DNA of 41,465 nt from the IMG/VR virus record IMGVR_UViG_2917881069_000006, one strand, 5' to 3'. The notes below the pieces were generated by a model. It worked only from the letters and a program-made list of their open reading frames with translations, did no database searches and was not told the DNA's origin. Both the position numbers and the translations under genes were made by a program. Positions 1-41,022 of this stretch are shown one piece after another (position 1 is the first letter of the stretch; each line of letters starts with the position of its first letter). The DNA is from a virus. Lineage: Duplodnaviria > Heunggongvirae > Uroviricota > Caudoviricetes.

Positions 1-318
1 TCATCGAAACAACAGCCAGACCAGCAGACACGCTATCACCGGCACAGCAAAATCCATCAGGCTTGCCACATCCCATGCACGAGGATCAAAACCGCCCCAC
101 CACGGCATATTCATACGCTTGCCATGCCCGAACATTTCAATCCAGCGATATTCTGCCTGGGTATGTTCACGAGCGATGAAGAACGTACAACCAGCTATCG
201 CACCGTAAGCCCAGTTTCCGGTAAAAAGACCAACCAGTACCTGCGCAGCCACAGCACAAAGCGCGTGAAGGAAAGGTGTTATATCCATTTTCATCCTACC
301 CAATAAAACGGGACTCAC
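1..318 (-). CDS. hypothetical small hydrophobic protein (family not recognised)
   Basis: 105-codon ORF whose stop codon is window positions 1-3; two hydrophobic stretches (CAVAAQVLVGLF, AVPVIACLLVWLL); start ambiguous (Met codons at 318, 294, 288). Confidence 0.35.
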   Translation of the reverse strand: MSPVLLGRMKMDITPFLHALCAVAAQVLVGLFTGNWAYGAIAGCTFFIAREHTQAEYRWIEMFGHGKRMNMPWWGGFDPRAWDVASLMDFAVPVIACLLVWLLFR

Positions 319-330
319 GGCCCCTTAATA

Positions 331-1372
331 TTATTTAGACGCAAGCGCCGCCTCAATTGCAGATAATCTTTGTCTTAATTCTGCGTTTTCTTCTTCCAGT
401 GCTGTTATTCTGTCGTCTGACTCTCTGGCTACCTGAACAAGCAAGCCAGTAACACCAGAATAATCTACTGTGTAGTAACGCTCGCCTTCTTCCCCTTCCG
501 AGCCGTTTCCACCGTCCTGATATTTCATTGCGGAGCCTACAACTTCCGGGATTGCTTCCAGAGCTTCCTGTGCAATGACACCTGCATAGGGCATACCGTT
601 TTCCTTAAGGGTATAGGTATAGCCGTTCATCTTGCGGATACGATCTGTTGCATTATCAATCACCTGAAGATTATCTTTCAGATCCCGGTCGGAAGCCTGG
701 TTAAAGGCGGTGGCATGACATGCACCATTAACAGCGAACGCATAGGTATTATCGGTTTGTTTCTGACCGTAGAACATATAAGCGCCACCATCAACACCGA
801 CTTCATAAACAACAGGACGGCTGGAGTTGCCCCACAATTTAGCAGTAACACCAGCATAAGCGGTTCCCTGTGTGTTTAATGTCATGGTTGACCCATGATT
901 AGCGTATTTGATTTGTAATGTGTCTGTGTAGTCAAACTTAATAAGCGCGTTACTTCCCCGCACACCATACGACATGAGACAGTTCCCCATCTTAAGGTAA
1001 CCATCACTGCCTGGAAAAATTAATGTTCCGCCGTAAAGATTACTAAAGTCCCACCAAATACCCTTTTCGCCATCTTTTACGTGTAGTCGCGCCATTGCAG
1101 CTTCATCGCCTGCAACATTTTTTTCGGGTATAAAACTCAGTATATACATCGATTTTATCGGCAGTCTTATGAATTGAACGATGTTTACCACCAAAGACAG
1201 TACCAGTTGTCGGCAAGGTATTATCTTTTTTGGTAGCATCCCAATCACCTAAAACCTCGCGTTTACCATCAACATAGGATTTTGTTGCGTAGCTTTCTTG
1301 ATCGGTTTTTAATTTACTAACATCGGATTTTAGCGTTTTGATGTCATCAGGAATTACTGTTACGCTCGCCAT
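331..1372 (-). pseudogene. tail fiber protein with C-terminal intramolecular-chaperone (peptidase S74-like) domain; frame broken at an A7 run
   Basis: Protein-like N-terminal frame (MASVTVIPDD...TVFGG...DVYTEFYTR; RBS GAGGGG before ATG at 1372) stops just after the homopolymer at 1118-1124 (T7 on plus, A7 on minus). The adjacent frame continues KNVAGDEAAMARLHVKDG... to a C-terminus with S74-chaperone-like signature (SDRDLKDN...YTVDYSGVTGLL...ALEEENAELRQRL). Span is 1042 nt (3n+1); A6 would give one ORF of about 346 aa. Confidence 0.5.
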
Positions 1373-1382
1373 GTATTGCCCC

Positions 1383-1661
1383 TCAAGCCCATTCACGAAG
1401 CGGAGCATCAAGAATCACTACATTTCCGGAAAATGGTGATGCGTCCAGCTTTTCATCTAAGATTCTAATATTTACAAAATAACCGTCGCGTCGTTGATAA
1501 ATTGGTTCGTCGTCGGCAGTTCTGCCGACTTCATCGAAAGCGAATCCAATTTCATCAATCAGGAGTTGATCTTGCAATACTTCGTTATCTTCCCAATTAA
1601 TTTCATTCAAGAATGCTTTATAGTCTTCCCGATCTCGAAATTTCAGTGTTAAATCTTTCAT
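1383..1661 (-). CDS. hypothetical protein, translationally coupled to stf (possible fiber assembly or accessory protein)
   Basis: 92-aa ORF; its ATG overlaps the stf stop codon (ATGA junction at 1658-1661); acidic protein, no recognisable motif. Confidence 0.4.
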   Translation of the reverse strand: MKDLTLKFRDREDYKAFLNEINWEDNEVLQDQLLIDEIGFAFDEVGRTADDEPIYQRRDGYFVNIRILDEKLDASPFSGNVVILDAPLREWA

Positions 1662-3738
1662 TCTACTGATTCCCCCATTTGTGCATCAGTTAACGCTTTA
1701 TGCCAAATCCTGAAATTTCGGATGTGTCCGAATATATGACGCTCACCAGTACTGGTTTGCCCACCAAATCTTATCGTAGCAGTTGGTGCTACATGAATAT
1801 AATCTGTCCTTGCAGACGATGAAAAAACAGAATTGCAAAACGCTTGAGTATCTCCATTTTCTTTACACCTAAATCCAGAGATAAACTTTCGATTTGTTGT
1901 TTTTACATACTTATTAATTCTTGTAGCGCCATCACCCATATCAACATAGGGCGATCCAGTATCAACCGCAGTCCCACCACGTAGACCATAAATTATGGCC
2001 TGCCCCGCTTTTTGACCAGTAAAATCCATTATTCTAGGTGCGGCATTTGGCGGAGAATCCCATTCCCAATTAAGATTGGTTTCGCACATTACAGTAAGCG
2101 GTAAATTGTAGATGTTGTTTTTGATTGGGATCGTAACTAAGTCACTCGCTCTTGTCGTTGTCGCAGATCCAGAAATAATAAAAGAAGAAGCACTGCTACC
2201 AACTTCAAATTGCGGTGTCGTTATCATCCACTGATCACCAATCTGTATATCTCGTTTATGCGCACCAACTTCAATTCGACCATAAAATGTTTTGTCTTCT
2301 GCGGTTTTATAAGTCAAAGATACAAACAACCATCCATTGGATTCAATTTTAGTATATACTTTCGTCGAGCTTCCGCCTGCAGGAGTTCCTAAAACTTCGC
2401 CCGTTTCCGCATTTATATAGGCATTCGAAGAAAGAGTATTACTAGAGCCATCCTCATTTACATAAGCAATCCTCGGATATACTGTCAGAATCCCATCACC
2501 AGCAACTTTTTTAACTCGGAAGGATATTGTAAGTGATTCCCCTGCCTTTGCTGGCATGGATCTTGGATATCCAGTTGAAATAAATGTAGCGCGTCCGGTA
2601 GTGCTTGTTTCGGCTGCAACATTAATAAGACCATAGGTAAAACCAAATTCATCTTTACCATTGGTTATATTCAATTGTGCGGCTTTATTCCATAACGACG
2701 GATTATTAGAATCTGCAAATGAATTGCTTCGTTGTCCTTCAATCAGTAAACCATCTTTTTCAAATCGTGGTTCGTCGATTGCTGCAATTTTCAGTTCCCC
2801 GGATTTATTGATATATGTAGCAGTTGATGCACGTTTAAACTTAACAATCTTGTCGCCAGGCATCGTTATTTCATCGTCACCAATAACAATCTTTTTATAT
2901 GATGGCGAAAAGCCCGTAATCATATCCAGCGAATCATTAAACGGAATCCAGACATCAGGCAACGGCGGAACTATATTCACATATGGTTTTACAGTCACTT
3001 CCGCTGCCGCTTCTGCGCGGTCTGCCGCCGCTTCCGAACGTGTCGCCGCCGCGACGGCTTCATCCTTTTTCTGCCCGGCCTTTGTTGCGTCTGCTGCGGC
3101 CTCCTGCGCTTTTGTGGTGGCGATTCCGGCATTTTCAGCGGCTGACTCTGCATTACGGCGGGAAGCCTCTTCACTGTTTGCGGAGGCTTCTTCTGACGCT
3201 CGGGCATTTGTCTCTGAACGTTCTGCTGCTGTTGCTGCGTTTTGTGCGGCTGTTTTTGAAGAGGCTGCCGCTTTCGCGCTGTTACCTGCATTCGTCTCTG
3301 ACGTTTTCGCCGCGTTCTTCGATGATTCCGCTGCAGTTTCGGATTTCTTTGCCGCCGCTGCGCTCTGAGAGGCAGCTTCAGCGTTTCGTGCCGTTTCTTC
3401 CAATATTTCCTCAAAACGGCGCAATGCCTCAGGCATGACATCATCTTCCGTCATGGCACCGAGAAAATCATTCAGCGTACCTGGTCTGGAACCTTCATAG
3501 ACGGTAATGATCCCGGCATGTGAAGGCGGAAAACCTTCAACCAGCAGGGTGACGCTGTACTGGCCATACTCAACATCCATGCTGTACGCCCGGCTTCATC
3601 CGGATTTTCAGAGGCTACCGTGTTCACCAGTACCGTGGTGCTGTTACGCTTTGCCTTCAGTTGAATAGTGCAGTTCTGTATTGGTTTTCCCGCACCATCT
3701 TTCAGCACACCTGAGATTTTTACTGCTGCCATATCCAC
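1658..3738 (-). pseudogene. stf: side tail fiber protein Stf, N-terminal 50 codons out of frame with the body
   Basis: N-terminal fragment MAAVKISGVLKDGAGKPIQNCTIQLKAKRNSTTVLVNTVASENPDEAGR matches the lambda Stf N-terminus, then changes frame near 3584-3588; the body (640-aa ORF from MDVEYGQYSV...) carries the Ala/Ser/Glu-rich KSETAAESSKNAAKTSE repeats typical of Stf and a divergent C-terminal receptor-binding region. Confidence 0.6.
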
Positions 3739-3796
3739 TCCACAAAAAAGCCCGCCTGAACCGGCGGGCTGTCATAACACTGTGTTACCTGGCTAA

Positions 3797-4396
3797 TCAG
3801 AATTTATAACCGACACCCACGATAAAACCGTCAGTGCGCCAGTCGCCACTGCCGGAGCCTTCATAAGCAAGGTCAATGGCCACGGATTCGGTCGGGTTAA
3901 ACTGCACGCCAGCCCCCCACGCCAGAGACGTGTTGCTGTGGCGACCGTCATCACTTCCGGTCAGCACATCGTGCGTTTTCCCCTTGTTATCAGTTACGCG
4001 GAGATAATCCCCGGAAAACGTCGAAACACGGCTGTAAGCCACACCCGCCATCGCATAAGCACTGAACCATTCATTCACGCGCACAGATGGCCCCGCCATC
4101 ATGCTGAACCAGCGGTTACGCACTGAATCTTCATGCCAGCGGGTATCGCTGTAACGGGTAATCTGGCGATTCTTGTCTCCGGCATAGCTGAATGACGTCA
4201 CCAGCCCCAGCGTGTTCGTAAATTCATAACGGTATTTCACGTTAATTCCCTTCAGGTCATCGTTGCCGGGCATATCTGTATGGGACTGAAGATACCCGGC
4301 GCTTAGTGTGGACTGATGCTCTGCTGCACTCGCTGGCGTACCAGCGGCGACCAGCCAGACTACTGCAGACAGAATAACAGCACATAATTTACGCAT
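3797..4396 (-). CDS. lom: Lom outer-membrane protein (Ail/Lom family)
   Basis: 199-aa ORF with signal peptide ([24 protein letters not shown]) and beta-barrel-like alternating pattern ending in aromatic residue (GVGYKF); lies between J and stf as in lambda. Confidence 0.85.
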
Positions 4397-4463
4397 AATT
4401 ACCTCTCGCTTTTCTGCAATAAAAAAGGCGCCATTTCTGGCGCCCGTATTTGGGTTATAAAAT

Positions 4464-7400
4464 TCAACTGATACTGATACCGGCGGTTGATTTCTTCATC
4501 ACGACAACCAGCAAATCGCTGATGCTTGCGGTGGGATAATATTTTCCATTTGAAGCTGAAACTGAAAACTCCAGAGTTATCCCTCCATAACCTGCTGGCA
4601 TATCCATGATGCCTGTGTAAATGGCTGTAACATCGGTGGTCGAGTTATCATAAATTACAGTGCCATTCTTTTTTACAATAAGGCGACAGGATGAATAGTA
4701 TTCACTGTTTGTGGATGCCTGCCGGTGCTTCGCCCCACAAAACGCGACAGCAGGAATAACAATTTGCCGGTCAAAAGGTTGATCGTCATAAATCCTGACG
4801 GTAATGGTCCCTGATGGCCAGCGTTCCGGTGCTCGGGGATCTCGCGGGAAAGCCTTACCTACCGTTTTAACAATATCGCCTTCAATCTGGTTGGCAGACA
4901 GTTTTCCCAGAATCCGACAGTTCTCGTTAATCGTGACATTATTGAGCGTCCCGGAGTTCGCATTCACGTTACCGCTGATATCGGCATTTTTCGCCGTCAG
5001 CCGCCCGTCCGGTGTCAGGGAAAATACCGGCGGATTGCCGCCGCTGGTAATGGTGGGAGCCGTCAGATACTTCAGGAACACTTCGTTCATGAATATCTGG
5101 TTGCCCTGCGCCACAAACATCGGCGTTTCATTCCCGTTTGCCGGGTCAATAAACGCGATACGGTTAGCGGCAACCAGGAACTGGCTCAGTTTACCTTCCT
5201 CCGTATCCTCCATGCTGAGGCCAAGCCCCGCGACATAATGCCTGCCGTCTTCGGTCTGCTCAATTTTGACGCCCCACATGGCATTCCATTTATCGTTGGC
5301 GTCTTTCCACTCTTTCGAAAACTCCTCCAGTTTGCTGGCGTTATCCTCCGTCAGCTCGACTTTTTCCAGCAGCTCCTTGCCGAGATGGGATTCGGTTATT
5401 TGGCCTTTGAAAAAATCCAGGTAACCTTCCGCATCATCGCTCGCCCGACCGACAGCTTCCACGAATGCCGATTTGCCAACGGTGTTCACACTGCGAACGT
5501 AAAAATAATAATCATGGCCCGGTTTGATATTGATACTGGCGGCTATCCAGTACAGCGCCGTGCCAAGATAGCGGGCTGTGGTTTCAACCTGCCTGATATC
5601 CGCAATCCGCTTTTCCGAGAACCAGAACTCAAACTGTACCGTCTGGTCATAAACGGCAAGATGCGGCGTTGCGGTTATCTGAAAATAGCCCGGCGTCAGC
5701 TCAATCCGCGACGGTGCTGCCGGTGCGGCAATCCGGAACGATACCGACGCCGGATCGCCCTGCTGCCCCCAGGCATTTACCGCCCGGACTGTCAGCCTGT
5801 AGTTTCCCAGCGCCAGTTGCGTGAAGCGGTATGTGGTTTCCGTCGTCCGGGCCGTGCTGACCAGCCGCTCACTGCCGTCATCCGCTGCCACGGTCAGGCG
5901 AAGCATAAAGCTCACACCCTTCACCACCTTCGGCGTGTCCCATCGCGCCAGTACCTGATATTCCCCGCTGTCTGCGGTGACTTCGGCAGTCAGGTGCTGC
6001 ACCGCTGGCGGCGTGACACCATTCACCGTGCCGCTCTGGTCGCCGTCAAAGTGCGCCCCGTTATCCACGATGGCTTCTTTTTCCGGTACATGCTGCACGG
6101 CGGTGATGGCATACGTGCCGTCATCGTTCTCACGGATACTCACACAGCGGAACAGGCGCTGACGCAGCGTCGGCAGCTTCAGCCCCCACACGCTGTATTC
6201 GGCAACGCCGTCAGGAACACGGCTCACTTTTACCTTCACGCCGTCGGTGACGGACTGGACCTCCACGCTGACCGGATTGCCATTTCCGTCTACCAGGCTT
6301 ATCAGCGTGGTGCCGGAGGATGGCAGCATGATTTCACGGTCGAGCGTCAGTGTCCGCGTCTGGCTGTTCACCGCCAGCACGCGCCCGCCGATGCTGATCC
6401 CCGCATAGTCATCATCACAGATTTCAATGACATCACCCGGTACATGGCGAAGCCCTTCTGCACCCACGCTGAAGTCCACGGTCTGCGTTTCCAGCAATTC
6501 CGTTTTAATCAGCCACAGCCCGGCGCGGTGCGCCTGCCCCCGGCTGGTACAGCCAAAGGCATCCATCTTCGTGACGTTACGACCGTAACGGGCAATGGCC
6601 TGCGTGTCCTCCACAAGCTCTGTTGCCGTTTCCCAGCCGTTATTCGGGTCAATCCAGTTCACCTCAACGGCATTATGGCGGTCCTTCAGGGCGCTGAAAC
6701 TGTAGCGGAACGGCGCGCCATCATCCGGCATCACCACATTACTGCGGTTATAGGTCCACACCTTATCCGACGGTCGGTCCTGCACGAACGTCAGCGTCTG
6801 CCCGTTCCATACCGGCATACAGCGCATCGCCGAGCAGAAATCACTGAGAACATCCCACGCCTTACGCTGTGTGGTCAGGTAGGCATTACAGGTGATGCGC
6901 GGCTCCGTGCCACCAAAGCCATCCGGCACCGACTGGTCGCAATTCTGGCCGATGACATACAGCGCCCATTTGTCCACATCCGCCGCACCGAGACGCTTCC
7001 CCATGCCGTAGCGCGGATGGGTCAGCATATCCCACAGACACCAGGCCATGTTGTTGCTGTATGCCGGTTTAAACGTCCCGTCCCAGATACCGCTGTATTG
7101 CCGCGTCTGCGGGTTATAGTTCGACGGCACCTGCAGAATGCGCCCGCGCAGATGATAATTACGGCTCACCTGCTGGCTGCCGAACTGCTCCGAATCCATC
7201 TGCACGCCGACCAGTGCCGTGTTCGGGTAGCACTGTTTCACATCGATGATTTCGGTGTATGACGACCAGAGTGTTTTGTTCTGCAGCTGGTCTGTGGTGC
7301 TGTCCGGCGTCATCCTGCGCATCCGGATATTGAACGGGCGCGGCGGCAGGTTATCCACCACCACCGAGGCCAGATACTGCGAGGTGGTTTTGCCCTTAAT

Positions 7401-7862
7401 GGTGATGTCTTTTTCTGTCACCCAGCCACCGTTACGCTGGATCTGAACCAGCAGGCGGACTTCCGATGGATTCCGGTCCCCCTTTGAGGTGGTTTCCACC
7501 AGTGCCTGCACACCGAAGATAAAGCGCAGACGGTCGATGTTTGCAGACGTGATGGTCCGGGTGATCGGCGTGTCATATTTCACTTCCGTACCCAGCACCG
7601 TCTCGGATCCGGAGGATTCAAAACCCTCCGGCGGAGTCTGCTCCTGCTCACCTGCCCGGAACACCACTGTGACACCGGAGATATTGGTATTACCCTCACT
7701 GTCCAGCACCGGCGTACTGTTCAGCAGCACGCTTTTTAATCCATCTACCGGACCTTCAATCGGCCCTTCGCTGATGGCATCGATCACACTCAGCAACTGC
7801 GTGGACTTCAGGTTATCCTTCGCTTCGCGCGGGGTATGCCCCTTACTGCTGCCTTTACCCAT
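4464..7862 (-). CDS. J: tail tip host-specificity protein J
   Basis: 1132-aa ORF, same length as lambda J; position after I; fibronectin-III-like central region and C-terminal receptor-binding part. Confidence 0.93.
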
Positions 7863-7922
7863 TCCTCACGCTCCATAAACGACAAAACCGCCCGGAGGCG
7901 GTTTCACATAAAACATTTTGCA

Positions 7923-8594
7923 TCAGCGACCAATCACCACAACCTGACCACCGTCCCCTTCGTCTGCCGTGCTGATCTCCTGAGAAACCACCCGCGACCC
8001 CACGCGCATTTCACCGTACAGAACAGGCAGGACATTGCCCTGGGCAACCATGTTATCCAGTGAGGAGAAATAGGTGTTCTGCTTACCGTTATCCGTTGTC
8101 TGTGTGCGGGGAGTTCTGGCTTTTGGTGCCAGCATCTGAGCCACACCGCCGAGCACCATACTGGCACCGAGAGAAAACAGAATGCCGGTCATACCACCGG
8201 CACCAATGGCAGCCCCCCATGCTGCAAGGGTGGCTCCGGCGGTAAAGAATGATCCGGCAATGGCGGCTGCCCCCAGGACAATCTGGAATACGCCACCTGA
8301 CTTGGCCCCTGCGACTCTGGGAACGATATGAATCACAGCGCCATCAGGCAGAGCCTCATGTAACTGCGCAGTTAATCCGGACGTGCTGACATCCTGCCCG
8401 GCAATCCGTACCTGATACCAGCCGTCGCTCAGTTTCTGACGAAACGCAGGGAGCTGCGTGGCCAGCGCCCGGATGGCTTCGGCCCCCGTTTTCACTCGAA
8501 GGTCGATGCGGCGGCCAAATCGTTGCAAATCCCCGTAAAGGCAGATGCGTGCCATGCCCGGTGACGCCAGAGGGAGTGTGTGCGTCGCTGCCAT
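7923..8594 (-). CDS. I: tail assembly protein I
   Basis: 223-aa ORF, same length and position as lambda I; overlaps K by 103 nt as in lambda. Confidence 0.85.
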   Translation of the reverse strand: MAATHTLPLASPGMARICLYGDLQRFGRRIDLRVKTGAEAIRALATQLPAFRQKLSDGWYQVRIAGQDVSTSGLTAQLHEALPDGAVIHIVPRVAGAKSGGVFQIVLGAAAIAGSFFTAGATLAAWGAAIGAGGMTGILFSLGASMVLGGVAQMLAPKARTPRTQTTDNGKQNTYFSSLDNMVAQGNVLPVLYGEMRVGSRVVSQEISTADEGDGGQVVVIGR

Positions 8595-9235
8595 TTGTCG
8601 GTATACCTCTCTCGTTTGCTCAGTTGTTCAGGAATATGGTGCAGCAGCTCGCCATCACCACAGTAAATGGCGGCATGATTCGGCACCGATGAACCAAAAC
8701 AGCACAGCAGCACATCGCCCGGCTGCGCCGCTGACAACGGCACCTGATACAGCCCTGTGGCCTCCAGATTATCCAGATAGAGATTCTGACCGTTACGCCA
8801 CCAGTCATCCTCACGATGAAAATCCGGCATCTCAATCCCCGCCAGATGGTAAGCATCCCGGAACAGCGTGTAACAGTCCGTCACCCCGTGCTCAAAGAGC
8901 CGCCCGGTGAGATGCGGCACGCAGCGGAACTTATGAATCGCCCCCCGGCAGACCAGCCACCACTGCAAATCACTCTGCACCTGCAGTCGCCGGTCGGCCT
9001 CACTCAGCCAGGGCAGACCACCGGGATGGCTGTGCACCAGCGCCACAATCTCACCCTGCATTTCTGCCCGCAGCCAGTCCTCCGGCGACATCCGGAAATA
9101 ATCCTCCGGCTCACCGGAGATATTCACGCAGGGAAAATATCTTTCCCCCTCCGGCGTTCTCACCACGAAGCCGCACGACTCCGCTGGCGCACATCGCCGG
9201 GCGTGCGCCAGAATCGCTGATTCTGTCTCTGTCAT
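8492..9235 (-). CDS. K: tail assembly protein K (JAB/MPN plus NlpC/P60-like)
   Basis: 247-codon ORF; the 199-aa form as annotated in lambda would start at the internal Met at 9091; Cys/His motifs of JAB and NlpC/P60 domains (HSHPGG, CGFVV). Confidence 0.85.
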   Translation of the reverse strand: MTETESAILAHARRCAPAESCGFVVRTPEGERYFPCVNISGEPEDYFRMSPEDWLRAEMQGEIVALVHSHPGGLPWLSEADRRLQVQSDLQWWLVCRGAIHKFRCVPHLTGRLFEHGVTDCYTLFRDAYHLAGIEMPDFHREDDWWRNGQNLYLDNLEATGLYQVPLSAAQPGDVLLCCFGSSVPNHAAIYCGDGELLHHIPEQLSKRERYTDKWQRRTHSLWRHRAWHASAFTGICNDLAAASTFE

Positions 9236-9240
9236 GGGAT

Positions 9241-9939
9241 TTACTGCGAAAGTTTGTTAATGGAAAGGAAGCCGCCAAAGTTGCCGACGTTATTGCGAAA
9301 CTTACAGCCACTCAGGCATTTGCTGCATTTATCCTTCGTGATATCGGACGTCGGCTGGTCATATTCATCCGCGACAGCCGGACCATTATAACCGCACTCA
9401 TCACCGCGATAGGTCCAGGTGCAGGTGTTGGCCAGCATGATGCGCCCCGGAAAAACGGCACCATCCGTTTCCGTCGGTGTGGACAACACAAAGGAGGCAC
9501 TGACCGCGCTCAATTCGCTGCACTGCTCGATGCGCCAGCGGCTAATCACCTCCTGCTCCGGATCGGCGTCGCTGTTTCCGTTGACGAAGTTCACCGCATC
9601 CAGAAAACGGGCATAAACCTTACGCCTGACCACCGTTCCGCCGACCAGACTCTGCAGATCTTCCGCCATCCCGGTGACCATGCCATACAGGTTAGAAACC
9701 GTCAGCGTGGGGCGCGTACTGGTGCCTTTGCCATTCAGTTCGAAACCACTCCCCTGAATGGGATACGCCTGATACTGCCGCCCCTGCCAGGTGACCGGCT
9801 CACCTTTTTCGTTCTGCTCATTACAGAAAAAATAACGTTCTCCATCGACCTCTGTCAGATCGATCTCCCAGAGCACCACGCTGGCCGACTGCTCCGCACG
9901 GGTGCATTCATTCAGTGTTTCCTGCCGGATATCCTGCAT
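9241..9939 (-). CDS. L: tail tip protein L
   Basis: 232 aa, MQDIRQETLNECTRAEQSA..., lambda L-like with C-terminal Cys cluster; stop/start junction with M. Confidence 0.9.
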   Translation of the reverse strand: MQDIRQETLNECTRAEQSASVVLWEIDLTEVDGERYFFCNEQNEKGEPVTWQGRQYQAYPIQGSGFELNGKGTSTRPTLTVSNLYGMVTGMAEDLQSLVGGTVVRRKVYARFLDAVNFVNGNSDADPEQEVISRWRIEQCSELSAVSASFVLSTPTETDGAVFPGRIMLANTCTWTYRGDECGYNGPAVADEYDQPTSDITKDKCSKCLSGCKFRNNVGNFGGFLSINKLSQ

Positions 9940-10268
9940 CAGTTCACCACCTGTTTAAACTCTGCGCTGAACTCAACACGCAACATACTGACCCGCGACG
10001 TCCATTTTGCGCAGGTCACCTTTATCTGCCGCCAGTCATAAGGCGGCGTCCACAGAAAGGCTTTCCAGCCTCCGTGCTCTGCCAGAAACGATTCCAGCGC
10101 CGTGGCCTCCCAACGGGGGACAGAAATCGTCACGCTGTACGTTTTCAGGTTGGCATTCAGCCCGGCAGGCGCGCGCTGGGAGTAACCATCACCAAAGCGC
10201 ACCTCCCTGACGGAAGGAGCCGAAGCCACATCCATACCCGGTTTCACTTTCCAGCGGAAGGTTTTCAT
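9939..10268 (-). CDS. M: tail tip protein M
   Basis: 109 aa, same length and position as lambda M. Confidence 0.9.
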   Translation of the reverse strand: MKTFRWKVKPGMDVASAPSVREVRFGDGYSQRAPAGLNANLKTYSVTISVPRWEATALESFLAEHGGWKAFLWTPPYDWRQIKVTCAKWTSRVSMLRVEFSAEFKQVVN

Positions 10269-12826
10269 CGCCCACCTCCGGAGAACAGACCACCATCACG
10301 CATCTGCCCGGTCACGACATCCATTGCCGCCTTACGGGCTACGTCATAAACCGCCTTCAGCGCCTGTGGCCCTATCTGACCGTTCGTGCCGTCGTTATTA
10401 ATCACCACATGGTTATTCTGCTCAAACTTCCCGGACGCCTGCGACCGGCTGTCCGCCAGACTGCCCGGTGTACCGACATAACCACCGGTGGCATAGCCGC
10501 GCATCAGCCGGTAGAGATTCCCCACGCCAATCCGGCTGGTTGCCTCCTTCGTGAAGACAAATTCACCACGGTGAACAATCCCGGCAGGCTCATATTTGCC
10601 ACCGGTTCCCGTAAAACCTCCGGTCGCAAAATGGAATTTCGCCGCAGCAGCCTGAATGGCTGTACCGCCTGACGCTGATGCGCCGCCACCAACAGCTCCG
10701 CCAATGGCGCTGCCGATACTCCCGACAATCCCCACCGTTGCCTGCTTAAGCAGAATTTCTGTCATCATGGACAGCACGGAACGGGTGAAACTGCGCCAGT
10801 TCTGCTCACTGCCGGTCAGCATCGCCGCCATATTCTGCGCAATACCATCAAAGGTCTGCGTGGCAGCACTTTTAACCTGCGACATACTGTCCGTGGCACT
10901 CTCTTTCCACTCGCTCCAGCCGGACTTCAGGCCAGCCATCCAGCTCCCGTTAAGCTGGTCTTCAGCCGCCCAGGTCTTTTTTCTGCTCTGACATGACGTT
11001 ATTCAGCGCCAGCGAATTATCGCCATACTGTTCCTTCAGGCGCTGTTCTGTGGCTTCCCGCGCTGCCTGCCGGTCAGTAAGCCCCCGTTTTTCGCATCAA
11101 TGGCTGTCCGTTTTGCCCGTTGTTGCTGTGCGAACTTATCCGCCTGCTGCGCCAGCGCATTCAGGTGCTCCTGATACGTGACCTTATCGCCAAGTGCAGC
11201 CAGCTGGCGTTTGTACTCCAGCGTCTCATCTTTATGCGCCAGCAGGGATTTCTCCTGTGCGGACAGCTGGCGACGTTGTGCCGCCTCCTCCAGTACCGCG
11301 AACTGATTTTCCGCCTTCCATAAATCCCGGCGCTGCTGGCTGATTTTCTCATTCGCTCCGGCATGCTTCTCCAGCGTCCGGAGTTCTGCCTGAAGCGTCA
11401 GCAGGGCCGCATGAGCACTGTCTTCCTGACGATCGCCCGCAGACACCTTCACGCCGGACTGTTTCGGCTTTTTCAGCGTCGCTTCATAATCCTTTTTCGC
11501 CGCCGCCATCAGCGTGTTGTAATCTGCCTGCAGGATTTTCCCGTCTTTCAGTGCCTTGTTCAGTTCTTCCTGACGGGCGGTATATTTCTCCAGCGGCGTC
11601 TGCAGCCGTTCGTAAGCCTTCTGCGCCTCTTCGGTATATTTCAGCCGTGACGCTTCGGTATCGCTCTGCTGCTGCGCATTTTTGTCCTGTTGACTCTGCT
11701 GTTCAGCCTTCTTTCTGGCGGCTTCAAGCGCAAGACGGGCCTTTTCACGATCATCCCAGTAACGCGACCGCGCTTCATCGTTAACAAAATAATCATCCTT
11801 GCGCAGATTCCAGATGTCGTCTGCTTTCTTAAACGCAGCCTCTGCCTTAATCAGCATCTCCTGAGCGGTATCAGGACGACCAATATCCAGCACCGCATCC
11901 CACATGGATTTGAATGCCCGTGCTGTCCTGTCTGCCCAGGTTTCCAGCGTGCCCATGTTCTCTTTCAGGCGTCGGGTCTGGTCATCAAACCCTTTCGTTG
12001 CGGCCTCGTTCGCCGCCTGCAATGCCCCGGCTTCATCGCCGGAACGCTGCAACTGAGCAACATACGCAATCTGCTCCGCCGTCACGTTATGGAACTGGCG
12101 CGCCATCGCCGTCAGCCCCGACGTCGGGTCAGTGGTCAGCTTCCCGAAGGCTTCAGCAACCTTGTCCACCTCCACGCCGGATGCAGAGGAGAAACGCGCC
12201 ACACTCTGGCTGATGGACGCAATCTGAGCCTCACCGCTTACCCCCGCCTTAACCAGTGCACTGAGTGACTCGCTGGTCTGGTTAAACGTCAGCCCTGCCG
12301 CCTGCCCGGCTCTGGACAGGACCAGCATACGATCTGCCGTCAGACCTGACTGATGACCGGAAAGGACCAGCGTTTTGTTGAACTCAGACAGGGTTGAGTT
12401 GCCCTGATACCAGGCATACGCCAGCGCACCGGTCGCCACTGCCAGCGAGGTGGCCCCGACCATCGGCAGGGTGATCGCACCGGCAAGCCCCCTGAACATG
12501 GGGATCATCCCGCCGAAGGAGTCCTTAACCTGACCACCCTGTTGCAGCAGGATCAGCCACGGACTTTGCCCGCCTGCAAGCTGCGTGGCCACGTCGGTGA
12601 ACTGTGCAGGAAGCATACGCATGGCGGCTTTATACTGTCCGACGGAAATCCCCGCTTTCTGTGCAGCCAGCGCCTGCCGGTTCATCGACTGTTCAACGAC
12701 TGCCGCTGTTTTTTTCGCATCACTTTCCGTACCGGAAAAATGACGCCTGACTCTGGCCATCTGCTCGTCAAATCTGGCCGCATCCAGACTTAAATCAACG
12801 ACCAGATCGCCTACCGGTTCAGCCAT
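10265..12826 (-). pseudogene. H: tail tape measure protein H, reading frame interrupted by two compensating single-base indels
   Basis: Total span 2562 nt equals an 853-codon gene, but the frame from ATG 12826 hits TGA at 11036-11038. The middle frame is open only between two homopolymers (plus-strand C5T5 at 11082-11092 and T6 at 10977-10982) and reads RGLTDRQAAREATEQRLKEQYGDNSLALNNVMSEQ; the original frame resumes as KKTWAAEDQL...MAGLKSGW to the C-terminus. Confidence 0.75.
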
Positions 12827-13253
12827 ACCGGACTCCTCCTGCGATCCCTTCTGATACTGTCATCAGCATTACGTCATCCTCCGTCATGTCCGCCACATCC
12901 GGGGAAGCGGGGATAACTTTATTCCCGTCCGGACCAAAGCGGACGCCTCCGGCAAGCCCTGCCGCTTTCTGCATCAGCACATCATCTTCAGGCTCTTCGT
13001 CAGCCTCACACCGATTCAGCAGACTGAAATCCAGCGGATGCATCTCCGGATCGCTGAAAAACAGGCTGAGCACGGTGTACGTCAGCCCGGAAAAGTGCAT
13101 ATCCAGCAGAACATCATGAAAATAATGGGTACTGTAAAAACGGTGCCAGTCGGCATACTCCGTGGATGACATCCCGGCAAGCATGGCGCGCCAGTCGGGT
13201 CGCCCCATCTCACGCGCCAGTTTCAGGGCAAAACTCAGCTCACCGTCGAACAC
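12819..13253 (-). CDS. T: tail assembly chaperone T segment, expressed as G-T fusion by -1 frameshift
   Basis: ORF FDGELSFALKLAREMGRPDW... has no ATG start (the track start is GTG inside the slippery site); lies in the -1 frame relative to G immediately after GGGAAAG. Confidence 0.85.
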   Translation of the reverse strand: MFDGELSFALKLAREMGRPDWRAMLAGMSSTEYADWHRFYSTHYFHDVLLDMHFSGLTYTVLSLFFSDPEMHPLDFSLLNRCEADEEPEDDVLMQKAAGLAGGVRFGPDGNKVIPASPDVADMTEDDVMLMTVSEGIAGGVRYG

Positions 13254-13648
13254 TTTCCCGCAGAAACAGGCTCTGCAGGCCCGGCGTCCTCTGCCTGTTC
13301 AGGGGCATTATTCACCACAAACTCATACATACCGGACAGCCGGTACACCACGTTTTCAGCATGAGAAATTGCCTCTGTGGGCCAGGTGGTAAGCACTTCC
13401 TGCTCAATCTGTTTAACGGCTTCATTCATGGACGGCATCTGCGTCTTCTTCGGATGGTTATGCCACAGAGACATCGCCACCACAAAAGCGCCGGTTCTGA
13501 TGACGTCTTCCACAGTAAACTTCCGGTTACTGTCGGATTCTGCCTGCTGTTTCATCAGGGCGAGATGCTCAATACGCTGCAGGGCTGACAGTTCAGAAAG
13601 CGTGACGGTCACGCCGTTATATTCAAATGATTCGGTTTTCAGGAACAT
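13235..13648 (-). CDS. G: tail assembly chaperone G
   Basis: 137 aa, MFLKTESFEYNGVTVTLSELSALQRIEHL..., lambda G-like; contains the slippery site near its 3' end. Confidence 0.9.
   Translation of the reverse strand: MFLKTESFEYNGVTVTLSELSALQRIEHLALMKQQAESDSNRKFTVEDVIRTGAFVVAMSLWHNHPKKTQMPSMNEAVKQIEQEVLTTWPTEAISHAENVVYRLSGMYEFVVNNAPEQAEDAGPAEPVSAGKCSTVS
13253..13259 (-). promoter_or_regulatory. programmed -1 ribosomal frameshift slippery heptamer G GGA AAG (G to G-T)
   Basis: Plus strand ctttccc at 13253-13259 is GGGAAAG on the coding strand, 18 nt before the G stop; downstream -1 frame is the T ORF. Confidence 0.75.
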
Positions 13649-13663
13649 CGCTGACTCTCCGGA

Positions 13664-14404
13664 TTAACTGGCGGTGACGGTGATTTCTGCAACCGCAGCA
13701 AACTCACCATTACCGGATACAACCGGAATGTTGACCTTGCCTGCAGCAACGCCGTTCACGGTGATAGTCATACCACTGACCGACACGGTGGCTTTTGTTT
13801 TATCCGCAGACACCGCACGGAAGCTCTTGTCGGTTACACCTTCCGGCTGGAATGCCACGGTCAGCGTGGTGCTCTGCCCTTTCACTACAGAAGCACTGGC
13901 TGGCGTTACCGTCATGCCGGTTGCTGCCGTCACCGTACTGCGATCTTCAGCCATCGACGGGCGTCCCACATTGGTGACCTTCACCGTGCGGGTGATCACT
14001 TCCTTCGCCGTCACCGCTTTACCGATACTGCTGACCCAGCCACGGAACACATCGACCGTGCCGTTCGGGAAGCGGATTTTATAGGCACGGGTATCACCTT
14101 CATTAAACCACGCCAGCAGCGCCTGCTGCCCCTGCTCTCCGGGCATCCACGCCAGCGTGAAGCTGGTATCTCCGGCTGATTTCTGCCCCTGCCCGGTCGC
14201 AGTCCAGTCCGCATCTTCATCATCGAGATAGCTGTCGTCATAGGACTCAGCGGTCAGTTCGCCGGGCGTCAGGTCTTTAACTTTTGCCAGACGCGACCAG
14301 TCAACGTCTGAAAGCGGGTTCGCATAAGGGTCACCGTTCCCCTTATAAACCCACAGTGTGGTCCCGGCACCTTTCACCGGCATTACTGGATTTGGTACAG
14401 GCAT
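13664..14404 (-). CDS. V: major tail protein V
   Basis: ORF track gives 13664-14434; lambda-type start [22 protein letters not shown] at 14404 gives 246 aa; C-terminal Ig-like region. Confidence 0.92.
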
Positions 14405-14411
14405 ATCGTCC

Positions 14412-14807
14412 TCACATTTCATAGGTAATGACATAAGTCAGATCGGCTGAACTCCACAGGCCCGCATCATCGTCGCGTCGGTAGTCATAGCCACTGGCCA
14501 CCATACTGGTGATCAAATCTGACAGTGCCGGAATATCGCTCATCACCGGATAAATCCGGGACTCCATCCACGAATCCAGCTCTGAATCCGGCACCTGAGC
14601 AGGCAGGAAAACTTCAATATGCAGCTCCGCCTGCCAGGTATCGCTGTCCAGCTCTTCGCCCGTGTATTCAGCGCCGGTGAGATAAACGGCAATTGCCGGA
14701 AAATCTTCCTCATCAAAAACAGCGGGGCGACCATCAAAAAGCGTCGCCCCGGTGTCATGCTTCTCCAGTGCATCCAGTACGGCTGCACGGAGTTCAGTAT
14801 GTTTCAT
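14412..14807 (-). CDS. U: tail terminator protein U
   Basis: 131 aa, [26 protein letters not shown]..., lambda U-like; 4-nt overlap with Z. Confidence 0.9.
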
Positions 14808-15382
14808 CGCTTTATTACCATTCTCAGTTGATGCTGCAGCGCATAGCCCAGCTCTTTCGGAAGACGCTCACGCCGTATCCGTTCAATATTCTGTTTAAAT
14901 GCCGTGGTCAGCGGCACCGCCATCGGGATTTTCACCACATCAATGGGGTAACGGTTTTTCCCGGCCACACGCTGCATGACATGCCACCGGCCATTTTTCA
15001 GTTGCTGAATAAACGCGCCGGGAATACGACGGTTACCCACCACAAGCACGCTGCCGCCACCTTTCAGGGCTGAACGCTGCCCCTTTTTACGACGCCTGCG
15101 GCGGGACAGGACAACCCGCGCGTTACCCAGCTTGATTACGGGCAAATCCCCCCGGTTAACCTTGATTCTGGCCTGCGGATTTTTAACCGTGGCCCTTTTC
15201 AGCCAGGCCCTTTCCTTTACCAGTTTCCGGCGTACCTTTGTCTCACGGGCAACCTGTGACGCCGACTGCGATATCGCGGATGAAGCAACGCGGTTAATGG
15301 CCATTGCGGCGGCACCAGGCACCGCCGTTTTGCTGATACGGCTGAGGTTTTCAACGGCCTGCTCAAGACCTTTTATGGCCAT
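14804..15382 (-). CDS. Z: tail completion protein Z
   Basis: 192 aa, lambda Z-like, basic RRRRRKKGQRS stretch. Confidence 0.9.
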   Translation of the reverse strand: MAIKGLEQAVENLSRISKTAVPGAAAMAINRVASSAISQSASQVARETKVRRKLVKERAWLKRATVKNPQARIKVNRGDLPVIKLGNARVVLSRRRRRKKGQRSALKGGGSVLVVGNRRIPGAFIQQLKNGRWHVMQRVAGKNRYPIDVVKIPMAVPLTTAFKQNIERIRRERLPKELGYALQHQLRMVIKR

Positions 15383-15393
15383 ACATCCCCCTT

Positions 15394-15747
15394 TCAGCGG
15401 CGACGGTTAACTGCAGGCGGTACCCCCCGCCCAAGCCAGAGATGACAGCTTCCGCCATCATCCGGCGTAACCCGATCTACCCAGAAGTTTTCCTCACCGA
15501 TGGTCAGTGTGTCTCCGCGCCGCAGCTGCTGCACATCATCAGTCCGGACAAACAGGGACGGGCTGGAGCCTTCAACGCGCACGCCCTGTCCGGCATAGCT
15601 GATATTTTCAGGGTCATCAAAAACACCACGTATCACAGCACCGGACTGCTCACCGGATGTAATGGTGGCTGACGTTCCCATGTACCCGCGTATCGTTTCA
15701 TCGGCGCGGGCAATGGCGGCATCGAACAGGTTATCGAAATCAGCCAC
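15394..15747 (-). CDS. FII: head-tail joining protein FII
   Basis: 117 aa, MADFDNLFDAAIARADETIRGYMG..., lambda FII-like. Confidence 0.9.
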   Translation of the reverse strand: MADFDNLFDAAIARADETIRGYMGTSATITSGEQSGAVIRGVFDDPENISYAGQGVRVEGSSPSLFVRTDDVQQLRRGDTLTIGEENFWVDRVTPDDGGSCHLWLGRGVPPAVNRRR

Positions 15748-15758
15748 AGCGCCTCCCG

Positions 15759-16154
15759 TTATTGCATTCTGGCCAGGCCACGTTCTGTCATTTCAGCTGC
15801 CATACCGGCAGAGACACGAAACGCCGTTCCCGGCAGCACAAATGCCACAGGTTCATCCCGCGTGGCGTGAAGTGCATCAGTATGCAGCGTCACCAGTGCC
15901 ACGACCGTGACCAGAGCAGCCGTATCAATCATGGTATCCGGCTGCGCTGATACCACCTCATTTTCATGTCCGGTCAGCGCATTTTCCGGTCTGAGAGGGG
16001 TATCCTGACCGGCAGCGTCATCCGTGTCATCAAGCTCCTCTTCCAGCTCTGCCACACGGAGCGCCAGTTCTTCTTTCGTCCCCGTCAGGCTGACATCACG
16101 GTTCAGTTGCTCACCCAGCGACCGGAGACGGACAATCAGTTCATCTTTCGTCAT
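15759..16154 (-). CDS. FI: DNA packaging accessory protein FI
   Basis: ORF track 15759-16193; lambda-type start MTKDELIVRLRSLGEQLNRD at 16154 gives 131 aa. Confidence 0.88.
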   Translation of the reverse strand: MTKDELIVRLRSLGEQLNRDVSLTGTKEELALRVAELEEELDDTDDAAGQDTPLRPENALTGHENEVVSAQPDTMIDTAALVTVVALVTLHTDALHATRDEPVAFVLPGTAFRVSAGMAAEMTERGLARMQ

Positions 16155-16195
16155 GGACTCCTCCACAGAGAGAAAATGGCCCCGAAGGGCCACGA

Positions 16196-17221
16196 TTACG
16201 CCAGTTGTACGGACACGAACTCATCAGGGTCAGCCAGCAGCATCAGCGGTGCTGACTGAATCATGGTGAACTCACGCGCCGGATCGCCGGTGGTCACCCA
16301 GTTTTTCGGGTAACGGGCAGAGGCGTTAATGCCTTCGCGCTGTGCGTCCGCATCCTGAATGCAGCCATAGGTGCGCAGACCGCGTGCCTGAGTGTTCCCC
16401 AGTACCATCGTGTTGTCCGGCAGGAAGTTCTTTTTGACGCCGTTTTCCACGTACTGTCCGGAATACACGACGATGGCCACATCGCCATACATCCCCTTAT
16501 AGGACACCGCTTTACCCAGGTCTTTCACCGCTGTCTCCAGCTCGGAATGAGAGCCGCGACGGGTATCCAGCTTCTCCTTGACGGCTTTGAAGGAACGGAA
16601 CAGCGCCCAGCCTTTCGGATCAAACACGATGATATTCACCACACCGCTGGCGTTCAGCGCGTAGGCTTCGATATCATCGGTCGGGTCATACGTGGACTTG
16701 TCGCGCTTGCTCCACTCCGTGCCACCGGACTGTGTGATGTTGTTCGCCGCACTGCGCCCCATATCCACCTCAACCGGATCAAAGGCTTCACCGGTCATGG
16801 TGTATTTGCCCTTAAGCACGGCAGAAACTGCCTGCATCTCTTCGACCTGGGCAATGGCCAGCTCTTCATCACGCATGTTCTGCATGATGATGCGACGGCG
16901 GCGGTAAGCCGGGTCCGCCAGATTCTGCGGATCTTCATCCGGCAGGCGACGCAGGGTCATCTGCGGATTCACCTCATGCTTCGGCTTGACATATCCCGGC
17001 GTAAATTCAGAGGTGGAGCCGCCACGGGAACGGATAACCTCACCGGAAACAATCGGCGAAACGTACAGCGCCATGTTTACCAGTCCCGGAATTTGTGAGA
17101 GATAGACTTTCTCCGTGGTGAAGGGATAGCTCTCACGGAAAAAGAGACGCAGAAACAGCGGATCAAACTTAAATTTCTGCTCATTTGCCGCCAGCAGCTG
17201 GGCGGTTGTGTACATCGACAT
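16196..17221 (-). CDS. E: major capsid protein E
   Basis: ORF track 16196-17248; start MSMYTTAQLLAANEQKFKFDP at 17221 gives 341 aa as in lambda E. Confidence 0.95.
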   Translation of the reverse strand: MSMYTTAQLLAANEQKFKFDPLFLRLFFRESYPFTTEKVYLSQIPGLVNMALYVSPIVSGEVIRSRGGSTSEFTPGYVKPKHEVNPQMTLRRLPDEDPQNLADPAYRRRRIIMQNMRDEELAIAQVEEMQAVSAVLKGKYTMTGEAFDPVEVDMGRSAANNITQSGGTEWSKRDKSTYDPTDDIEAYALNASGVVNIIVFDPKGWALFRSFKAVKEKLDTRRGSHSELETAVKDLGKAVSYKGMYGDVAIVVYSGQYVENGVKKNFLPDNTMVLGNTQARGLRTYGCIQDADAQREGINASARYPKNWVTTGDPAREFTMIQSAPLMLLADPDEFVSVQLA

Positions 17222-17276
17222 AAAAAAATCCCGTAAAAAAAGCCGCACAGGCGGCCTTTAGTGATGAAGGGTAAGG

Positions 17277-17609
17277 TTAAACGATGCTGATTGCCGTTCC
17301 GGCAAACGCGGTCCGTTTTTTCGTCTCGTCGCTGGCAGCCTCCGGCCAGAGCACATCCTCATAACGGAACGTGCCGGACTTGTAGAACGTCAGCGTGGTG
17401 CTGGTCTGGTCAGCAGCAACCGCAAGAATGCCAACAGCAGCACCGTCGGTGGTGCCATCCCACGCAACCAGCTTACGGGTGGAGGTGTCCAGCATCAGTG
17501 GGGTCATTGCAGGCGCTTTCGCACTCAATCCGCCGGGCGCGGTTGCGGTATGAGCCGGGTCACTATTGCCCAGCGGCTGGTAATGGGTAAAGGTTTCTTT
17601 GCTCGTCAT
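17277..17609 (-). CDS. D: head decoration protein D
   Basis: [27 protein letters not shown]..., 110 aa, lambda D-like. Confidence 0.95.
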
Positions 17610-17618
17610 AAACATCCC

Positions 17619-18224
17619 TTACACTGGTGTGTTCAGCAAATCATTAACGGCATCAGATGCCGGGTTACCTGCAGCCAGCGGTGCCGGTGCCCCCTGCATC
17701 AGACGATCCAGCGCAGTGTCACTGCGCGCCTGTGCACTCTGTGGTGCTGCGGCCAGAATGCGGCGGGCCGTTTCCACGGTCATACCGGGGGTTTCTGCCA
17801 GCACGCGTGCCTGTTCTTCGCGTCCGTGAGCCTCCTCACAGTTGAGGATCCCCATAATGCGGCTGTTTTCTGCCGCAACCGCTGCGGTGATCTGCGCGTT
17901 CACGTCCGGCTGCGCCGCGCTGGCGTTTTCGCCCTCCGTCGCTGGCACCACGTCAGTAACGTCAGCCTGCGAAGCAGTGGCTGAAACAGTTGTTGATTGA
18001 GTCTCTTTGGTCATTCGCCCTCCTGAGAGACGGGATTTACGTGCATCCAGTGCATCACGCATAACGGTGATCGCATCGGTGCTGTTGACAAGTTCATCAG
18101 CCAGTCCGGCATCAATGGCCTCCTGACCGCTGTACACTGCAGCCTCGGTATCCAGCACAGCCTGCACGGACAGGCCGGTATATGCCGACACCTTCTGCGC
18201 AAACATCTGGCGGGTTGCATCCAT
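17619..18224 (-). CDS. nu3: scaffolding protein Nu3 (in-frame internal start within C)
   Basis: Internal Met (MDATRQMFAQKV...) at the position where lambda Nu3 starts, giving the 201-codon C-terminal nested product; inferred from lambda organisation. Confidence 0.6.
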   Translation of the reverse strand: MDATRQMFAQKVSAYTGLSVQAVLDTEAAVYSGQEAIDAGLADELVNSTDAITVMRDALDARKSRLSGGRMTKETQSTTVSATASQADVTDVVPATEGENASAAQPDVNAQITAAVAAENSRIMGILNCEEAHGREEQARVLAETPGMTVETARRILAAAPQSAQARSDTALDRLMQGAPAPLAAGNPASDAVNDLLNTPV

Positions 18225-18918
18225 CCGGGACTGCAGTGTCTCCCGGACGTCATCCGGAAGATGGCTGTAGGGGTTGCCATCCACCTTATGGCTGCCGCTG
18301 TAAATCAGCGTGATTTCCACACCCTGTTTCTCCAGCGCAGCACCGTAATTACTGTGAGCCATCATGACGCCGATGGAGCCTGTCCGGGCGGTCTGTGTGA
18401 CCAGACGCCGGGAGGCGGCACTGGCAAGCAGCTGACCTGCGCTGCAGTTCATGTCATTGGCCAGCGCCCATACCGGCTTTATGTCACGCACACGGGCGAT
18501 GATGTCAGCGCAGTCAAATGCCCCCGCCACCATTCCGCCTGGCGTGTCCATATCGAGCAGAATGCCGTCCACCATCGGGTCGCTGGCAGCCTGTTGCAGA
18601 CGGGCGATAATGCCGTTGTAACCGGTCATCCCCGAGTACGGCTGCAGCGCCCGCGTCCGGCTGACCAGCGTGCCGGACACCGGCAGCACGGCGATGCCGT
18701 TCATGACCTGATAACTGCGGGCCTGTCGTGGTCCGTCATCATCACCGGATAACGCCAGCGTCGCGGGTGCCTCCGGGGCAGTCAGGCTGTCACCGGACAC
18801 CGCATCCGTCAGGCGGCTGATCCCAAGCTGGCCTGCAAGCGCACAAAAGAAAACCCGCGCATAGGCGGGTTCAAGCATCAGCGGCTCATTAAAGGCCATG
18901 CTGGCAATATGCGGGAGA

Positions 18919-18938
<20 letters not shown>
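17619..18938 (-). CDS. C: head maturation protease / minor capsid protein C
   Basis: ORF track 17619-19052; lambda-type start at GTG 18938 (VTAELRNLPHIASMAFNEPLM) gives 439 aa; ClpP/SppA-like serine protease fold residues. Confidence 0.9.
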
Positions 18939-22619
<3,681 letters not shown>

Positions 22620-39035: not shown

Positions 39036-39190
39036 CGCATCCTCACGATAATATCCGGGTAGGCGCGATCACTTTCGTCTACTCCGTTACAAAGCGAGGC
39101 TGGGTATTTCCCGGCCTTTCTGTTATCAGAAATCCACTGAAAGCACAGCGGCTGGCTGAGGAGATAAATAATAAACGGGGGGCTGTATGA
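39032..39190 (+). CDS. small ORF downstream of exo (lambda orf60a-like)
   Basis: 52 aa, [56 protein letters not shown] junction with exo stop and with the methylase start. Confidence 0.5.
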
Positions 39191-40679: not shown

Positions 40680-41022
40680 GGCCTGTCAGTTTCTCAAGAT
40701 ATCCAGACCTACCGCTACCAACTGGATACGAACAGGCCGCCTACAGGCAACACGCAAAGATCCCACTAAACCAAAATCTCCTTACCTCACAACACGGCAA
40801 GCCTGCATTGCGGCGCTTCAGTCTCCGCTGCATACTGTCCAGGTGAGCGCGGGTGATGGCATAACAGAGGAAAGAAAATGTCACTCTTCCGCAGAAATGA
40901 AATATGGTATGCCTCGTACTCGCTCCCGGGCGGGAAACGAATTAAGGAATCTCTTGGCACAAAGGACAAGCGGCAAGCTCAGGAGTTGCACGACAAGCGA
41001 AAAGCAGAACTCTGGCGAGTAG
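40651..41022 (+). CDS. xis: excisionase-like HTH protein (Xis/AlpA-like)
   Basis: From [36 protein letters not shown] (RBS GAGG); C-terminal extent uncertain, frame overlaps the int start by 145 nt. Confidence 0.6.

Follow-up and report, generated by a model that had tools for sequence, protein, structure and literature searches.

The DNA analysed here is a 41,465-nucleotide (nt) stretch held in IMG/VR as record IMGVR_UViG_2917881069_000006, and is referred to throughout as the window. It is a lambdoid prophage of the DLP12-site (argU/intD) type. The late genes are on the minus strand; Nu1 and A lie near 23 kb and are followed by the head and tail genes. The subject of this work is stf, the side tail fibre gene. 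In the window, stf (1658-3732) is directly downstream of J (4464-7862) and lom (3797-4396), all on the minus strand, as in a lambda-like tail cluster. An earlier note on this DNA, made from the sequence alone, described stf as frameshifted about 50 codons into a lambda-like N-terminus and as ending in a divergent receptor-binding region.

The deposited stf gene is in two pieces. The 5′ fragment (3472..3732, minus strand) starts at ATG 3732 and its protein sequence opens MAAVKISGVLKDG. The first 49 codons are native (MAAVKISG...NPDEAGR); they are followed by 37 that are out of frame and a stop at 3472-3474. The list of open reading frames (ORFs) gives this stub as 3472-3738, with 88 amino acids (aa) counted from a GTG; ATG 3732 is the start that matches the annotated Stf of Escherichia coli A1_136. 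The body of the gene (1658..3580, minus strand) is a 640-codon ORF (MDVEYGQYSV...). It runs from a natural internal methionine, Met52, to the normal stop, is otherwise intact and has a C-terminus ending like that of the intact A1_136 Stf.

We aligned the locus with the intact stf of A1_136 and with EcPF15. There was one gap only, corresponding to a single missing T. Thus, at position 3586, the window has a lone T (A on the plus strand) where the relatives have TT, and CGTTAC becomes CGTAC. The relatives read CGTTACAGC across the site and the window reads CGTACAGC. The same one-base gap in stf is present in the list of gaps against E. coli MS15052. The native frame is lost after codon 49 (R49), and restoring one T gives a single stf ORF of 691 aa. 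The loss of one base at CGT-ACAGC, as suggested from the sequence, was therefore confirmed. In two finished E. coli genomes, EcPF15 (3169-5010 of the compared locus) and MS15052 (3616-5988 of the compared locus), the annotation divides the homologous stf into several fragments called as pseudogenes, and so broken side-fibre genes are common in resident prophages. EcPF15 also carries an IS3-family insertion in its tail-tip genes.

The break falls within a single domain. The Pfam family PF08400 (prophage tail fibre N-terminal) is cut exactly at this point, with profile positions 2-50 in the stub (E 8e-22) and 51-131 at the start of the body. For comparison with lambda we used a 774-aa Ur-lambda Stf, made by joining orf-401 and orf-314 of NC_001416. 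Residues 3-116 of the repaired Stf are 82% identical to this reference, in agreement with the proposed lambda-like N-terminus. The repaired N-terminus also matches PDB entries 9e7m/9mgh (lambda Stf 1-94; E 3e-50), and a PDB sequence search with the stf body returned the lambda collar domain as its sole match. In lambda, residues 1-94 form a six-stranded sheet and a helix, and twelve copies make up a collar at the gpV/gpM junction (PMC12617516). The break after residue 49 bisects this attachment domain. Hence, the stub of 49 native residues with its 37-residue nonsense tail could not make a collar, a product restarted at Met52 would be missing half of the collar beta-sheet, and attachment to the tail would fail for both.

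The window and Ur-lambda have stf at the same locus (J - lom - stf), with a homologous PF08400 collar domain and a similar Ala/Ser-rich shaft. The deposited stf of lambda PaPa is also split by a single-base frameshift, into orf-401 and orf-314 of NC_001416 (PMC12617516), as the earlier note had stated. The two frameshifts differ in place and in standing. That of lambda, near codon 395, is well established as a mutation of the laboratory phage, whereas that of the window is after codon 49 and is probably a sequencing error.

The origin of the sequence bears on this point. Positions 1-17862 of the window are 100% identical to contig PDIG01000005.1 of assembly GCA_004745185.1. The PDIG00000000 project is the genome of Escherichia cryptic clade II strain E2661, which was isolated from intertidal sediment (PMC6639607). 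The data for E2661 are Ion Torrent only, with single-end reads of 35-400 bp and 40x coverage; MIRA and SPAdes assemblies were merged, scaffolded with the guidance of a reference, and gaps were closed and finished manually (PMC6639607). The NCBI records of the contig hold no protein for stf or for the tape measure gene H.

We compared the whole window with E. coli relatives. At least six further one-base indels were found. Most are changes in run length, and they break H (twice), a second tail-fibre gene with a Peptidase_S74 chaperone domain, intD, ybcK and a DUF1317 gene. In H (10265-12826, minus strand) the run at 10977-10982 has one T too many, and a single G stands in place of GG at 11087. 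Between these indels are 110 out-of-frame nt with two stops; the frame then returns and the lambda length (2,562 nt) is kept. The S74 fibre gene (minus strand) has A7 for A6 in the run at 1118-1124, which shifts the frame. In intD (40878-41465, plus strand), A5 for A4 at 41450-41454 leads to a stop at 195 aa, and this premature stop is the last triplet of the window. The ybcK recombinase gene (29939-31339, minus strand) has T5 for T4 at 29970-29974 and encodes 466 aa, compared with 508. In the DUF1317 gene, G6 for G5 at 39177-39182 alters the C-terminal end. Intergenic A-runs at 17222 and 23182 are also one base off the relatives. There is a one-base difference in a G3 run of ylcG (27716-27718), which is common to MS15052, where the gene is annotated as frameshifted.

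At every gene-breaking indel, the displaced downstream frame is open and conserved. No nonsense mutation, deletion or insertion sequence (IS) element was seen in the compared regions of the window. A restriction of the indels to tail genes, which would have hinted at selection, was ruled out; intD, ybcK and the DUF1317 gene are also broken.

Logan contigs were informative at the S74 fibre gene. One contig (L007), from an independent assembly, has 6 A in the run where the window has 7, and is otherwise identical to the window over 2,380 nt. A second contig (L008), from run SRR6148326, ends inside the same A-run, and another ends in an A4 run. Such ends are produced by noisy homopolymer calls. 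The Logan contigs of SRR6148326 carry the exact lom protein of the strain and also its exact version of the 92-aa protein encoded just downstream of stf.

Searches for the deletion allele were made with several queries. Among the 1,694 complete E. coli genomes that hold an 81-nt segment across the site, none carried the deletion allele exactly. All 12 of the best matches to this segment were one base longer than the window. Similarly, all six of the best E. coli matches to a 471-nt query from the start of stf spanned one base more. Since the best matches to both queries are longer, the one-base difference is no chance effect. A 25-mer across the deletion had no match in IMG/VR and none among the GTDB species representatives. 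Its single metagenome match, to an indel-rich contig of 1x coverage that is 91% identical, is uninformative. Exact-product look-ups with the 640-aa body and the 86-aa stub gave no match, and hence no second assembly for comparison; protein M was too conserved for its look-up to be informative. Taken together, the deletion allele looks private to this assembly.

We consider it probable that the stf frameshift is a sequencing artefact, most likely a one-base undercall in which TT was read as T, and not a mutation of the organism. A 40x single-end Ion Torrent draft, with at least six similar indels in the same 41 kb, is better explained in this way. On this platform, 'high-frequency indel' errors are found at a rate of about one in every 1-2 kb of reference, are mostly single-base and cause frameshifts in assemblies (PMC3623719). 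The strand-asymmetric ones are found mainly (82%) in 2-3-base runs (PMC3623719), and the loss of one T from TT fits this class. Several points weigh against an artefact. It is deduced from context and not read off the sequencing reads. The run at the stf site has just 2 bases and no long homopolymer alongside, and of all the indels described here this one has the least typical context. Real slippage mutations also favour runs, and so the run context does not separate artefact from mutation. Prophage stf genes are often truly broken, as in the annotated pseudogene fragments of EcPF15 and MS15052, and the ylcG run-length variant is present in MS15052 too. Finally, the closest intact stf 5′ end is only 97.9% identical, and no near-identical copy was found in the searches. 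The best match to the H indel region is similarly distant (97.0%). Hence, the argument from an indel without accompanying substitutions is usable only at the S74 site.

The main rival, which is somewhat unlikely, is that the deletion is real and that stf is a recent pseudogene. It could then be one of several slippage mutations that inactivate genes of a DLP12-site prophage under decay, or a loss of side fibres like that of PaPa, tolerated by a phage that depends on J. DLP12-site prophages are commonly defective. The frameshift does stand in the deposited sequence, the missing NCBI proteins for stf and H fit pseudogene calls, and complete E. coli genomes hold fragmented stf genes. Lambda side fibres make adsorption 10-30 fold faster and are dispensable for plaque formation (PMC12617516). 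Damage to intD, H and the second fibre gene is in keeping with general decay. It does not suit a specific PaPa-like loss, for which the rest of the phage should be intact; here H, the S74 fibre gene, intD, ybcK and the DUF1317 gene are all frameshifted. Moreover, all of the disruptions are one-base indels, with perfectly conserved downstream frames and no nonsense mutations, deletions or IS insertions. Not one substitution is present in the 2,380 nt around the S74-fibre indel, the platform is known for exactly such errors, and the deletion allele was not matched in the 1,694 genomes. We also think it unlikely that the indels as a set are real, which would mean a structurally complete prophage, in an environmental clade II strain, with at least seven very recent slippage frameshifts and almost no substitutions. 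If so, the likely cause would be a burst of homopolymer slippage, such as a transient defect in mismatch repair could bring about, or rapid disarming of tail and excision functions. An assembly fault, in which merging or gap closure made a faulty consensus from paralogous stf 5′ ends of several prophages, is very unlikely. Such paralogues do exist: with a 2.6-kb stf query, E. coli genomes show a median of 2 matching places each, and as many as 14. In addition, the genome was assembled by a two-assembler merge with reference scaffolding and manual closure (PMC6639607), and a lom-bearing Logan contig ends 48 nt into stf. The other indels, conversely, are simple run-length changes in single-copy DNA, which indicates base-calling, and the flanks of the stf site are free of any mosaic of substitutions against the nearest relatives. 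We reject purposeful use of both ORFs, through programmed −1 ribosomal frameshifting or re-initiation at Met52, as extremely improbable. The body ORF does open with an ATG (3580) right after the shift. However, there is no X XXY YYZ slippery heptamer at GCC GGG CGU ACA and no Shine-Dalgarno sequence before ATG 3580, the best-matching relatives all have one continuous ORF, and the break cuts one folded domain (PF08400; lambda Stf residues 1-94) in two.

Since the frameshift that drew attention to stf is probably an artefact, it is probably not a property of the organism, and any biological meaning implied for it is doubtful. One-base frameshifts in this Ion Torrent draft should not be taken as pseudogenes or host-range switches unless confirmed at the level of reads. 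The biological weight of the locus is small in any case; side tail fibres with exchangeable receptor-binding modules, and a frameshifted stf, are textbook lambda biology.

The remainder of Stf diverges from lambda in two steps. The shaft (2999..3388, minus strand; about residues 117-244 of the repaired Stf) is rich in Ala, Ser and Glu. As far as residue ~244, there are low-complexity matches to the shaft of lambda Stf, in the proximal part assigned as a coiled coil (PMC12617516). Compared with the 796-aa relatives, the shaft has about 105 fewer residues and is a different variant; its DNA, the central stretch of the gene, could not be aligned to that of EcPF15. Thus, the shaft is, like the tip, a variable cassette. 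Beyond it, residues ~245-691 (~447 residues) gave no alignment to the reconstructed 774-aa Ur-lambda Stf. The C-terminus is therefore unlike that of lambda, as had been claimed, and the case of a lambda-identical C-terminus did not arise. In lambda, the C-terminus is gp37-like, binds OmpC and requires Tfa. The window has neither a gp37-like tip nor a downstream tfa; stf is followed by the 92-aa ORF and the S74 fibre gene.

The C-terminal module (1661..2998, minus strand; VTVKPYVNIVPPLPDVW...GESVE) is 446 aa long and unrelated to the lambda Stf C-terminus. The stf body matches PHROG 1419 (tail protein; E 2.6e-251) and phrog_5939 (E 7.6e-77). A domain search of the body, suggested as a check in the earlier note, found the NCBIfam domain NF048003, 'phage head spike fiber', at body residues 279-478 (2147..2746, minus strand; 58.3 bits, cutoff 36, E 1.4e-15). 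Homologues of the module bear Pfam PF13385 (Laminin_G_3), which is not significant for the window sequence itself. An AlphaFold monomer model of the module, made with a 50-sequence alignment, is all-beta. The mean predicted local distance difference test (pLDDT) score is 74.6, with 81-96 over residues ~90-270 and poor values for the first ~88 residues. The part of the model that overlaps NF048003 is its high-confidence beta-sandwich. The last ~147 residues (1661..2101, minus strand) are modelled as a beta-rich, LamG/ConA-like jelly-roll with block-mean pLDDT of ~61-90.

The best Foldseek match to the model is the tail fibre of Pseudomonas phages Pa193/E217 (PDB 9b45, 8env; E 2e-5, probability 1.0). 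That protein is a myovirus baseplate fibre, has 14-16% sequence identity with the module and gives TM-scores of ~0.3. Further matches are to galectin-8, neurexin LNS domains, botulinum toxin binding domains and CBM4/22/40 modules. Hence, the module is predicted to consist of tandem ConA/LamG-like lectin domains. The Rhodobacter capsulatus gene transfer agent (RcGTA) head spike fibre, which has NF048003 homology over ~200 residues (above the curated cutoff), binds capsular polysaccharide (PMC10218006). Only this one domain is common to the RcGTA fibre and the module, and the RcGTA fibre belongs to the capsid of its gene transfer agent and to no phage tail. In small siphophages, the lateral fibres have been proposed to recognise O-antigen, which would be a primary receptor that the phage can do without (PMC8594841). 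The domain matches, the fold matches and this literature suggest that the module most probably binds surface polysaccharide, such as O-antigen or capsule. Set against this are the modest scores: the Foldseek E value of 2e-5, the mean pLDDT of 74.6 and the badly modelled first ~88 residues.

The module is of a known type, catalogued in PHROGs and NCBIfam and occurring in thousands of sequences. Homologue searches returned thousands of relatives, including prophage Stf proteins of 674-796 aa from E. coli, E. marmotae and the cryptic clades. Cluster P0001 (the intact 796-aa A1_136 type) and the 446-aa module are 96% identical, although the C-terminal homologue search did not return this cluster. 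E. coli Stf proteins of the PHROG 1419 type (WP_094158907.1, A1_136, P0001) have the same architecture of PF08400, coiled coil, head-spike-fibre domain and, putatively in the window, LamG-like domain. Relatives of the A1_136 type also have the same downstream genes, namely the 92-aa ORF and the S74 fibre. Conversely, PHROG 1419-type relatives are single intact ORFs of 674-796 aa, whereas the window gene is split and has a shorter, different shaft. In the searches run, an intact copy of the exact 691-aa combination was not found; the best match was 74% overall.

Similar modules are attached to other anchors. In the lateral or side fibres of T1-like phages of the Drexlerviridae (PeterMerian/Bas05, SLUR29, tinuso, swan01 and EC125), identity is ~50% over the whole 446 aa, and a homologue of the 92-aa ORF adjoins. 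These fibres have a different N-terminal anchor without PF08400, and their proposed receptor, O-antigen glycans, is putative for this module. Other proteins, which begin with a P2-type fibre N-terminus (PF12571 and PF03406), have ~48% identity to the module. Because the same module is found behind different N-termini, it is a widely shuffled cassette. The idea of a swapped receptor-binding module thus holds insofar as the tip differs from that of lambda. It does not mark out this locus, since the cassette is a common one (PHROG 1419, NF048003). In sum, what had been observed in the sequence was confirmed and its interpretation partly supported. The fibre gene is otherwise ordinary: a known kind of lambda-type side fibre with a known, widely exchanged lectin-like module.

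The 92-aa ORF (1383..1661, minus strand) overlaps the stf stop by 4 nt and occupies the position of tfa in lambda. It belongs to phrog_1361 (E 1e-35). In 182 phage records, of lambdoid phages (phage 21) and of T1-like, T5-like, Dhillonvirus and rV5-like phages, homologues adjoin the genes for side or lateral fibres. In phage 21, an annotated side tail fibre has the same partner ORF. By this conservation of gene neighbours, the 92-aa ORF regularly accompanies fibres of this type, and its product is a candidate for a chaperone or adaptor of the fibre. The second tail-fibre gene follows (331..1372, minus strand; phrog_4563), with the Peptidase_S74 domain (Pfam PF13884) at its C-terminus. Its frameshift splits it into 89 and 254 aa.

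With the base restored, the 691-aa protein would be expected to act like known side fibres. Residues 1-~94 would be the collar domain; in lambda, twelve copies have been shown to clamp the junction of tail tube and tip, and the same is likely here given the 82% identity. The Ala/Ser-rich coiled coil of ~130 residues would provide the shaft. In place of the OmpC-binding tip of lambda, the last ~447 residues would present lectin-like beta-sandwiches, which may allow fast and reversible adsorption to surface polysaccharide. The module would be followed by its usual 92-aa partner gene, and then by the second fibre gene with the S74 chaperone domain.

Two features flank this region. Between lom and stf there is a terminator-like element (3745..3770, minus strand), recognised by eye from the sequence as a GC-rich hairpin with a T-run (gcccgccggttcaggcgggctttttt), and followed by GGAG and the ATG of stf. 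At the other end, a gene for a 429-aa flagellin (Flagellin_N and Flagellin_C) adjoins the tail-fibre end of the prophage, at 17917-19206 in the contig comparison, just outside window position 1. Beyond the flagellin gene are dinI, a gene for an SMR-type transporter, an invasin-like fragment and nfrA, which is an odd neighbourhood for a DLP12-site prophage.

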